DNA of 60,607 nucleotides, the filler included, from Candidatus Aminicenantales bacterium (GTDB lineage Bacteria > Acidobacteriota > Aminicenantia > Aminicenantales > Saccharicenantaceae): assembly GCA_049512315.1 (NCBI GenBank). It is 8 parts of 8 records of this genome, joined end to end, with 100 filler letters (N's around TTAATTAATTAA, not from the genome) between each part and the next. Parts side by side here need not be neighbours in the genome. Positions count along the whole stretch, not along the records: positions 18,336 to 27,193 come from JBEKXF010000062.1; 7 more parts are not named here. One strand, 5' to 3'. The stretch's first letter is position 1. The number at the start of each line of letters is the position of its first letter. Shown in pieces: positions 24,001 to 27,000 of the stretch. The position numbers were made by a program.

Positions 24001-27000
24001 TGCCTACTGGCAAGAACACTACGACCTGCGACACATCCTGGAGCGCAACTGGAAGTCGCTCGGACCAAGACTCAAAGGAAAGATTCATATCTATGTGGGA
24101 GAGATGGACAATTGGTATCTGAACAACGCGGTCTACCTGATGGAGGCCTTTCTCAAAAGCACCAAAGACCCCTATTATGACGGGACAGTGGCATATGGGG
24201 ACCGTCAGCCCCATTGTTGGTGCGGCGGGGCGGGACTTTCGCTCCCGGTTTCGATGTTAACTATTAACCAGCGTTTCGCTCCCGAGATGGCCGCCCACAT
24301 CGTCAAAACGGCCCCTCCGGGCGCGGACGTCGTGAGTTGGCGTTATTAAAAACCATCGGCTTTCCCGCTCGCCTGCCCGAAAGGGGGAGCAATAATGTGG
24401 GTGTACAGGTTCAGCTCCTTGACGTGGCGATATGAAAAAAGGAGGCTTCCTAACCCTGGATTAATGACCCTTATTGATGATCTCGAATAATCTGGACGCC
24501 TCTTTCCCGTTGGTGTTCTCGAGACAAACTAGGATATAGCTCTTCACATTACGGATGCTCACGAATTTCCCGCGGTCATCGAGCATTTGGAAATAGAGAG
24601 GCCCCCTCGATTTGAATTCCCTAGATTTCGGATTGGCCATGATGGCCTTCTCAACGGCAGAAAAACTCCTTCGGGATTCGCCTTCGCCCACATACTTGAG
24701 AATAAAAAGGGACGCACCCGAGGAATACTCGCCCTTGACGGCTTCCTGGAACCGAAATTCTTCTCCGCCTAGAGAAAGATAGTTGTTCATGAAGCCAAGA
24801 TATCCCCGGAAATAACGGATGCTGGTCTTGATAAGATCGGCTTGTGGAAGCTCCGCCACGAGAAAGGGAGGCGCCGAATAATCTCGGATCTTTTTCGATA
24901 CGACGTGCGCAAGACCAAGCAACCCCTGACGGCCTTTCCGATCTTTATCATAACCCGTGATAGTGACGACGAAATTCCCTTTCCAAAAATTCAGGTAGTA
25001 ATCCTCTAATTGACCTTCGGTCCCGGCTGCGATCGGTGTGCCCCGCGCACTTCTCTTAAAGGTATACATGCCGTACGCACCCTCCGGGTTCGTCATCTGA
25101 AAGATCTCGAGCGAGAGCCCCTCCCCTTCGCGATTCTTGTATTCCTGGACAAGGGCTTGCGCAAATCCATACTCCCGGTAGATCTCCGCCCCGCCGTCGA
25201 TGTAGAGATATAGATCTTCTCCCTTGAATTCCTGCGGCGGGCCATCTGCTTTCCACTCTCCCGCTTCCTTTTCGGAAGGAAGATAAGAACGGAGGTCAGA
25301 AATACCGGGTGAGGATTGTTCCAGTGAGAACAGATTGAATGAGATGGAGATGATGATCAGCAGGCAGAACCGGCCAATTACGTTCCTCGTCTCCATGTAC
25401 ATTTCATTTAAGCGGCGACTTCCTGGATTCTGACTTTCTTGAGGTTGATTTCGCCCAGGCCGTGTTCATGGCCTTTCTTGATCATGAGGATCTCTTCGCC
25501 TTTGAGACCCCGCAACGAGGCGCAGTAGCTGTCAACCGCGATCCGGTCCACGCCCGCCACTATCTTCCGCGGCGTGGCCAGTTCGCCAGGCCCAAAAGGA
25601 CCGTTGGTTGTGATGAATTCCGTTGCGTCAACAATACAAAGGGTGGGCTTGACCGCCAGGTTGAGGTCGGCGATGCACTGGTCGAGACGGTCGATATCAT
25701 CAGGCTTGGTCTTGAAGTCGCCGCTGTGGAACGTCCGGTTGACTTGAGCGAAGTTCAGGGCCATCAGGTTCTTCATGGCACCGGTGAATCTGTTTCCGGC
25801 GTGGTCCTTGGTGATGGGCAGGTTGATGAAGCAATCGTTGTTGAAGAATTCCTTCATGATCTTGGCTTCATGAAGGATCTTGCCTTTGGGCAGGGCAACC
25901 GGTTTGAAAAGGTCTTCGGCCTTGAAATCGATAAGCTTGAGTTCGGCCCCTTCCTCCTTCAGGACGGCATCGAGACCCGTGGCCGTCCACATTTTTTCAG
26001 GGAGCCAGCTCAGGCAATTGACTTCCTTGGCCCCGGCTTTCTTGCACATCCGGACGACGGCCCTGACGATTTCCGGCTTGGTGAACGTTCCGGGGTGATG
26101 GCTCTGGGTGTTGGGCAGAATTGCCACCCGGGCGTTCTTCGGCACAAACCGTTCGATCCCGCCGAGAAGGTCCACGGCTTTCCGCGTGCTCGCCAGGTAG
26201 TCTCCACCCTGAACAACTGCGATATCCGGGTACACCGGATTCAACGAAGGGGAAAGGCCGGCCCCGGAACGAGGCCAAACGAGCCCGCCACCGATGAGCG
26301 CCGCCGCTCCCGTCCCCACGCTTTTTTTGATAAAGTCCCTACGCTTGAGTTTTCCGTTCATGATTCCCTCCTGCGGTGGCGTTCGCGAAGGCCGAGGCCT
26401 TTTTCAGCGTTTTCCTTGGAGCAGATTCTTTATCATTGGGGGCGAGCCGTAGCGGCCGGTCAGTTGATCGTCAGCGATTCGCTCCCCGCGGATCCAAGGC
26501 CAAATCGACGAGGTCAGCCAAGTCCGCCAAGTGGTTCTTGGTCACCTCATCAGACGCAACGGCCGATTTCTCAAGAAAGAGCCGGCGAAGGGCTTTCAGC
26601 TCCGCCCGGATGGCCGCCCGGCTGTCGTCGTTCCGTATCATGAACGCGGGGCCCGACGCTCCGGGCATCGCAATCCCGCCCTGGGCTCCGGCCTGGGGCG
26701 GCGCCAGCCGGCCGTTCAGGATTTCAATGTAAGCCCTCTGCAGGTTGCGACGATAGGGGTCGATCACGACTTGGGGTCCGCTCAGTTCCGTGAAGATGCC
26801 CGACCGCAAGTCCGCGAGAAGCTCTATGATGGTATAAGCCTGATCGCCGAGGATGGCCGCATGGTCCTGGAGACGGCAGATTCGGTTTTGCCCGAGAAGA
26901 TCGTTCAATATGCCCTGCTGGAGGCTCACGAGCCTGGCCTGGCCGCTCGAGGGTTCGATCTTGCGGACGATGTCCGCGGGCTCGAGCCAGGTGGGCGTCT

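Follow-up and report, generated by a model that had tools for sequence, protein, structure and literature searches.

Which protein uses the nickel-pincer cofactor in a genome that encodes the lar pathway but no LarA? About 15% of genomes carry larB, larC and larE without larA, and the question of the client has been posed as an open one (PMC11796402). Known nickel enzymes number only a dozen (PMC13524815); further background is found in PMC12611868, PMC13510736, PMC8305020, PMC8454699 and PMC7955657. For the Candidatus Aminicenantales bacterium studied here, the genome-wide survey's note had answered the question with the DUF362 family, several members of which are exported and paired with DUF6599, and had described the lar pathway as orphan. 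One such pair is located in the window, the whole stretch of 60,607 nucleotides that was analysed, in which several contigs are joined by runs of N; the pair lies on contig C62, starting at position 18336.

The gene counts behind this proposal hold in the genome, which is 96.6% complete. The three pathway genes all score above their cut-offs (larB 294 bits, cut-off 175; larE 295 bits, cut-off 150; larC 431 bits on PF01969), and a search of the genome with the Lar_N profile gave nothing above the cut-off (best E 0.057), confirming the absence of LarA. Ten DUF362 profile matches, two of them within one gene, correspond to nine genes, and five of these carry a twin-arginine motif (RR-x-F; on contigs C62, C9, C4, where it is found twice, and C22). 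Three of the five DUF6599 genes adjoin a DUF362 gene, on the same strand on C62 and C22 and divergently on C49, where the DUF362 protein has no Tat motif. Such neighbours were also found in 7 of 13 Bacteroidota genomes holding both families, a share similar to the survey's 3593 of 7358. Ten sampled genomes of the class gave the same general picture, with larC in nine, DUF362 in all ten and Lar_N in one.

The pair in the window comprises the following features:

24461..25402, minus strand: DUF6599 gene, 313 amino acids (PF20244, 142 bits, E 2.5e-41)
25408..26361, minus strand: DUF362 gene, 317 amino acids (PF04015, 135 bits, E 4e-39), in the Tat-exported clade of the tree and with the fold of the LarA N-terminal cofactor-binding domain
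25726..25809, minus strand: codons of the putative cofactor site, K185-x-H187-x9-K197-N...H212, from an alignment of 124 sequences
26269..26343, minus strand: twin-arginine signal, residues 7-31 (RRDFI; TIGR01409, 18.6 bits, cut-off 16.7)
26367..26372, minus strand: AGGAGG, read from the sequence as the ribosome-binding site, with 5 bases between it and the DUF362 start

DUF6599 lies downstream, and only 5 bases separate the DUF362 stop from its start. The Tat signal is well conserved, with R7, R8 and F10 each present in at least 90% of the 124 aligned homologues; those homologues that are named come chiefly from Aminicenantes. The DUF6599 protein begins with a hydrophobic leader that by inspection is of the Sec type, and its structure model (pLDDT 88) shows two tandem domains similar to PsbP, Mog1 and the PknH sensor. 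Residues 33-175 match the extracellular domain of PknH with Z 13.5 and residues 178-313 match TM1622 and TiME with Z 10.3. The fold of each half and the extracytoplasmic location are thus shared with the PsbP/Mog1/DcrB-like and PknH sensor domains (4ESQ, 1VR8, 7CU8; Z 10-13.5), but DUF6599 carries two domains in tandem with about 10% identity to these, and no function can be transferred. The structure comparison gave no clear catalytic hint, and DUF6599 probably binds DUF362 outside the membrane without a catalytic role of its own.

The LarA fold reported for the family was borne out by a model of the window's DUF362 built from 124 sequences (pLDDT 92). It matches five LarA-family entries (5HUQ, 9EIA, 7S91, 9Q3J and 4NAR) with Z 15.8-18.8 and an rmsd of 2.9-3.6 A over 202-222 residues, whereas the next fold reaches only 5.7; among the Foldseek matches listed under E 1e-3, only LarA-family entries were found. 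The link is already implied by Pfam clan CL0471, which unites DUF362 with Lar_N/DUF2088, and DUF362 has served as an outgroup (PMC11770544). Identity is only 9-14%, and no relative emerged when the PDB was searched by sequence, either with the window's protein or with its profile; the LarA link of DUF362 is structural. The protein matches DUF362 alone in Pfam and not Lar_N. The match is confined to the N-terminal domain of LarA and ends near LarA residue 269, while the DUF362 protein ends at residue 317.

Three residues of the conserved site, H187, K197 and H212, align to LarA H174, K184 and H200 in a comparison of the family profile with six LarA sequences. This alignment is weak (E 0.004, probability 8%) and sets the register at the level of profiles and not of superposed residues. 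The numbering given earlier for the site, K161, H163, K173 and H186, belongs to the C49 paralogue without a Tat motif; in the window's gene these are K185, H187, K197 and H212. Among its 124 homologues K185 is found in 124, H187 in 122, K197 in 123 and H212 in 124, and N84 is invariant. The residues had been called invariant, which does not extend to all nine paralogues: C4:132037 has no first His, and the first Lys is replaced by Arg in C22 and by His in C8.

In LarA, H108 and H174 are catalytic, K184 carries the thioamide of the cofactor and H200 binds the nickel; these residue numbers and roles are taken from PMC7583248 and PMC11851776. In the profile alignment DUF362 has no equivalents of LarA H108, R75 and D72, the aligned columns being variable or occupied by Asn84, and the C-terminal substrate-binding domain of LarA with K298, Q295 and Y294 is absent from the window's protein. 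Conversely, an additional invariant Lys at the second position ahead of the His, an Asn-Gly-Pro loop and, in this clade, Tat export distinguish DUF362 from LarA. With a LarA-like fold and an aligned site but no counterparts of H108 and R75, the window's DUF362 would work like the cofactor-binding domain of LarA, yet it is not a LarA. The Tat-exported protein is probably a hydride-transfer enzyme. Since it keeps a single catalytic His together with the Lys/His anchor, while H108 and the C-terminal domain are missing, a one-way dehydrogenase or reductase is likelier than a racemase.

In 121 Acidobacteriota genomes with a completeness of at least 90%, larC is present in 65 of 70 genomes with DUF362 and in 25 of 51 without; among genomes without Lar_N the numbers are 25 of 29 and 10 of 33. 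LarA itself served as benchmark, with larC in 55 of 59 LarA genomes. Ten genomes carry larC with neither DUF362 nor Lar_N. The genomes in all presence tables are related and not independent, so that associations and P values are overstated. The tallies include four unpublished genomes: G048 in the Acidobacteriota tallies, positive for larC, DUF362, Lar_N, the transferase and DprE1 described below, G023 in the transferase tally, G356 in the Chloroflexota C6-type and larC tallies and G491 in the larC tally; the conclusions are independent of all four. Fourteen control genomes were mixed: both larC and DUF362, but no Lar_N, were found in Synechococcus and Haloferax, larC with neither family in Corynebacterium and Methanocaldococcus, and DUF362 without larC in Bacteroides thetaiotaomicron.

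Gene neighbourhoods add to this picture. The lack of adjacency between lar genes and DUF362, conceded earlier as a weakness, is real in this genome, where the lar genes lie on three contigs with no DUF362 gene near, but it does not hold everywhere: among the best 80 larB loci, seven have DUF362 within 10 kb and none has LarA. In two Acidobacteriaceae the order is larE-larC-larB-polyferredoxin-DUF6599-DUF362-DUF362, all on one strand, and in two Bacteroidales the lar genes stand back to back, in divergent orientation, with DUF362 and a polyferredoxin. The exported DUF362/polyferredoxin module directly adjoins lar operons in two separate lineages (L145 and L150; L113, L156 and G298), an argument for tying the exported type to the pathway. 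The general idea of DUF362 as a pincer user therefore finds support in fold and site residues, in the co-occurrence with larC in Acidobacteriota and in these loci.

A cross-phylum check of the co-occurrence, which the survey had lacked, splits the family. Our Bacteroidota sample comprised 201 genomes, selected with a completeness filter whose values were not confirmed, and larC is present in 24 of them. The exported, polyferredoxin-linked DUF362 type (E<1e-79) was found in 26 genomes, 14 of which have no larC; larB is missing too in all five of these that were tested. The site motif is nevertheless whole in all 14 larC-negative genomes, and no alignment column separates larC-positive from larC-negative members, which are intermixed in the tree. 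Only 2 of the 16 exported-type genomes that do not contain the C6-type paralogue described below have larC. At 12 of 12 larC-negative loci the module consists of DUF362 and polyferredoxin, and we found neither an alternative maturation cluster next to the exported type in these 12 genomes nor any other gene common to most of them. All 13 Bacteroidota genomes that contain DUF6599 have the exported type and six have larC, and DUF362 and DUF6599 are neighbours in five larC-negative genomes, in the one inspected with a DUF362 partner of the C4:132037 type.

The window's DUF362 falls within the exported clade, as sister group to the polyferredoxin-linked type, in a quick tree in which two long branches join doubtfully. 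Because this clade can persist without larB and larC, the window's gene is probably not what keeps the pathway in this genome. The exported DUF362/DUF6599 pair, presented by the survey as candidate users, is on the best reading the weakest client of the pincer pathway, and we lean towards a negative answer for the pincer dependence of the window's own gene. That its protein carries a pincer made by the resident lar genes is doubtful, though the idea keeps a real share of our belief.

It might be argued that most DUF362 proteins, the exported ones included, carry the pincer, being loaded in the cytoplasm, leaving folded through the Tat pathway and passing electrons to a membrane polyferredoxin, with larC-negative hosts importing the cofactor or a precursor or simply being incomplete. 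The identical Lys/His site of exported and cytoplasmic types, the lar-polyferredoxin-DUF6599-DUF362 arrangement and its divergent version in Bacteroidales all agree with this, and LarA itself occurs without larC in 4 of 59 genomes. Furthermore, four other, hand-picked genomes with members of the window's own subclade (G062, G017, G098 and G318) are all larC-positive; DUF6599 lies next door in three, and in one the neighbourhood is cut by a contig end. All four, however, also hold LarA or the C6 type as another candidate client. A Tat-bearing homologue of the pincer enzyme NphT, described below, makes the export of pincer enzymes at least plausible. However, the absence of larC in 14 of 26 genomes far exceeds the 7% loss seen for LarA, and neither the lack of larB in all five genomes tested nor the bare DUF362 and polyferredoxin modules at the 12 larC-negative loci fit this explanation. 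The import route would require pincer uptake, of which we know of no description. We regard the view that most DUF362 proteins carry the pincer as unlikely.

The co-occurrence of DUF362 with larC comes mainly from one cytoplasmic paralogue, located outside the window:

C6:31595-32671: C6-type DUF362 gene, 358 amino acids, in a separate, highly conserved clade of the tree

This type is very common: at E<=1e-60 it comprises at least 7954 sequence clusters. Across three phyla larC is present in 106 of 112 genomes with the C6 type and in 143 of 461 others. Taken separately, Acidobacteriota have the type in 43 of 121 genomes, among them all ten of the class (larC in 41 of 43 against 49 of 78 others), and Chloroflexota in 50 of 251 (46 of 50 against 89 of 201). 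Bacteroidota have it in at least 19 of 201 genomes, a count based on the A1 profile and the best 11 or fewer candidates per genome that may miss some, with larC in 19 of 19 against 5 of 182 others; seen from the other side, the type is present in 19 of 24 larC-positive and in 0 of 177 larC-negative genomes. The Bacteroidota matches that track larC could have been a type with a C-terminal ferredoxin, but their sequences are of the C6 type. Six C6-type genomes have no larC, and the two tested have no larB either. Comparison of the C6 type with the LarA profile was not significant (E 0.48), although it aligned the same His and Lys; the connection to LarA runs via the window's family, to which the C6 type is related with a probability of 99.8% in a profile comparison. 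We consider the C6 paralogue the best client among the DUF362 proteins, and it is likely that it binds the pincer.

The gene directly upstream of the C6 DUF362 gives a hint to its substrate, as it encodes a decaprenyl-phosphate phosphoribosyltransferase (NF008977, over cut-off). In Acidobacteriota, 41 of the 43 genomes with the C6 type have this transferase at E<1e-60, compared with 15 of 78 others; at E<=1e-30 the number is 42 of 43. Bacteroidota have it immediately upstream of the C6 type in 14 of 19 cases and Acidobacteriota in 9 of 43; among metagenome loci long enough to include it, mostly from close kin, 48 of 71 show this order. In two relatives of the class larC is found within 3 kb of the transferase. 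Phosphoribosyltransferases of this kind supply lipid-linked ribose to auxiliary epimerases (PMC11127046), of which DprE1/DprE2 is one system. Using one protein query in Acidobacteriota, since PF04030 proved too unspecific, full DprE1 was detected in 0 of 43 C6-type genomes and 21 of 78 others, a tally from which four matches to the FAD domain only (G007, G025, G041 and G115, all C6-type) were left out and into which one partial match (G108) was taken. Among transferase-positive genomes the exclusion is equally complete, with DprE1 in 0 of 42 C6-type genomes and 18 of 29 others.

Together, the link to the transferase, the exclusion of DprE1, the precedent of auxiliary epimerases and the hydride chemistry of the pincer lead us to infer a pincer epimerase that replaces DprE1/DprE2. 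LarA is the established case of pincer chemistry in which a hydride is taken from a carbinol and then given back. The upstream transferase would couple phosphoribose to polyprenyl phosphate, and the lipid-linked phosphoribose would then be dephosphorylated. The C6 DUF362, probably held at the membrane by an aromatic C-terminal extension, would use a nickel pincer tethered to Lys168 to remove a hydride from a carbinol of the ribose and return it on the opposite face, yielding lipid-linked arabinose, or a different pentose, for cell-surface sugars with no need for the FAD/NAD pair of DprE1 and DprE2. The C6 type shows one aligned His, whereas LarA needs two for epimerisation, and a second base as well as the position on the ribose would have to be postulated. 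This arrangement resembles DprE1/DprE2 and the three-component pentofuranose systems in having a transferase upstream and an auxiliary enzyme that alters a lipid-carried pentose, but the known epimerases are an FAD oxidase with an SDR reductase, or an SDR (PMC11127046), while the enzyme proposed here is a single LarA-fold protein. We consider the chances evenly balanced that epimerisation of lipid-linked ribose in place of DprE1/DprE2 is the actual reaction.

Instead, the C6 type might use its pincer to oxidise, reduce or epimerise another precursor of envelope glycans, the lipid-linked ribose being used unchanged. Glycosyltransferases of the GT4 and GT2 families and sulfatase-like proteins are encoded nearby, and in Chloroflexota the transferase adjoins the C6 type in 0 of 30 loci, where neighbours are mixed; it is present in all five Chloroflexota C6-type genomes tested, in one 7 kb away. 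Ribose side chains require no epimerase (PMC11127046), and 11 of 71 transferase-positive Acidobacteriota genomes lack both DprE1 and the C6 type. However, the presence of the transferase in 42 of 43 genomes (E<=1e-30) and the complete exclusion of DprE1 point to one and the same step, which makes a different precursor improbable.

The absence of LarA had been taken to mean an orphan pathway, but two clients other than LarA have been published. NphT is a nickel-pincer aldo-keto reductase that acts on sugars by hydride transfer, with a Lys as tether and a His as nickel ligand (9YEB; PMC13524815), and a pincer-dependent ornithine cyclodeaminase is cited in the same paper. NphT is a TIM barrel unrelated to DUF362. 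Eleven aldo-keto reductases of this kind are encoded in the genome. For the one at C16:42728-43720, a PDB search at E<=1e-12 gave NphT as the sole match (E 2.5e-26), and its H193 and K244 align to H144 and K200 of NphT. NphT was discovered through its adjacency to lar genes (PMC13524815), whereas the C16 homologue is not adjacent to them and bears a Tat motif. Five further reductases of the 11 have His and Lys at the NphT columns, and four of these five have Tat motifs; the C25 reductase lies outside alignment A5 and was scored by pattern only. With both binding residues present in the C16 reductase, the lar pathway here is not strictly orphan. The ornithine cyclodeaminase was not found in the genome in a weak search with four short approximate motifs. 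Reductases beside DUF362 genes in G186 and G318 were also considered as NphT type, but a PDB comparison gave no NphT match.

Alternatively, the lar genes might serve an NphT-type reductase and no DUF362 might use the pincer. The DUF362 site would then bind a metal or a different nucleotide cofactor, and shared ancestry and an anaerobic lifestyle would account for the co-occurrence. The C16 reductase and the five further His/Lys reductases speak for it, as do DUF362 without larC in Bacteroides thetaiotaomicron and 14 Bacteroidota genomes and the loss of LarA R75 and D72. But in three phyla the link of the C6 type to larC is as tight as that of LarA itself, with 19 of 24 against 0 of 177 genomes in Bacteroidota; for the second His/Lys reductase (C22), 9YEB is not among the PDB matches at E<=1e-10; and one pathway can feed several clients. 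A complete absence of the pincer from DUF362 is thus very unlikely.

We slightly favour the reading that DUF362 proteins are LarA N-domains that occur on their own and that dependence on the lar genes varies between subfamilies, with an exported dehydrogenase or reductase type and a pincer epimerase of the C6 type. Among open-access papers, surveyed mostly by title, none assigns DUF362 a cofactor or a reaction, although the co-occurrence figures in PMC13524815 could name it. DUF6599 is unmentioned in the papers searchable in open text, and a pincer-dependent arabinose or polyprenyl epimerase was not found in print, subscription journals being poorly covered. New here are the split into subfamilies, the tabulated distribution of larC and DprE1, and the homologue of NphT.

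A broader view would make DUF362 a large second nickel-pincer family, with the C6 epimerase in many phyla, periplasmic pincer chemistry of exported members and Tat-bearing NphT-like reductases wired to polyferredoxins, and lar-less hosts supplied with the cofactor, or a variant of it, by an unknown route. We give it limited credence; if true, the C6 epimerase would account for much of the pattern of larB, larC and larE without larA in many phyla. The exported DUF362 proteins keep their site while losing the pathway, which points to another cofactor or an unknown supply route. For the C6 type, one specific and very common protein can now be named as a likely pincer client with a proposed, assayable substrate. 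If the proposed reaction is correct, this would be a new route to lipid-linked arabinose, free of DprE1/DprE2, and the first case of a pincer enzyme acting on a membrane lipid.

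Around the best 80 larB loci in other genomes (L082-L161), larC was present in 39 and larE in 24, and a LarA gene was found in the surrounding DNA of none of the 80. At one of these loci, L132, an aldo-keto reductase gene follows immediately after larB. In the source genome, at C7:65766-69315 (a region partly spanned by locus L013), larE is preceded by two genes; judged by eye, one resembles a divalent-metal transporter and the other a CBS-domain protein, and they could supply nickel.

A DUF362 type with a C-terminal ferredoxin occurs in at least seven other genomes of the class (L050, L052, L053, L055, L056, L058 and L073); it was looked for in the source genome and not found. 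At L252:4410-6131, a phosphoribosyltransferase is fused in frame with a DprE2-like reductase, and DprE1 lies immediately before it.

Two further features of the window were recorded:

815-8701: 2628-aa reading frame made up of long repeats in tandem, whose DNA copies are about 80% alike
21593-24349: genes next to the DUF362-DUF6599 pair and convergent with it; one frame is subtilase-like, the other encodes a 631-aa esterase-like protein with a lipoprotein-like leader

Nothing indicated that the two genes at 21593-24349 belong to the DUF362-DUF6599 module.

G117 and G115 contain the cytoplasmic C6-type DUF362 protein while both larC and larB are missing, which may reflect assembly gaps or uptake of the cofactor; G117 additionally has a LarA match. 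Ten Acidobacteriota genomes (G014, G015, G019, G047, G071, G085, G097, G102, G108 and G111) contain larC and neither Lar_N nor DUF362, and therefore other clients must exist there.

Aldo-keto reductases of the source genome were compared with the published nickel-pincer enzyme NphT:

C16:42728-43720 (L408): reductase with a twin-arginine motif, NphT being its only strong PDB match
C67, C28, C37, C22 and C25 (L412-L416): five further reductases in which the NphT positions are occupied by His and Lys

All five of the latter carry C-terminal cysteine clusters, and four have twin-arginine motifs. Sequence comparison with NphT showed that both cofactor-binding residues are kept in the C16 reductase, making it a candidate exported pincer enzyme.
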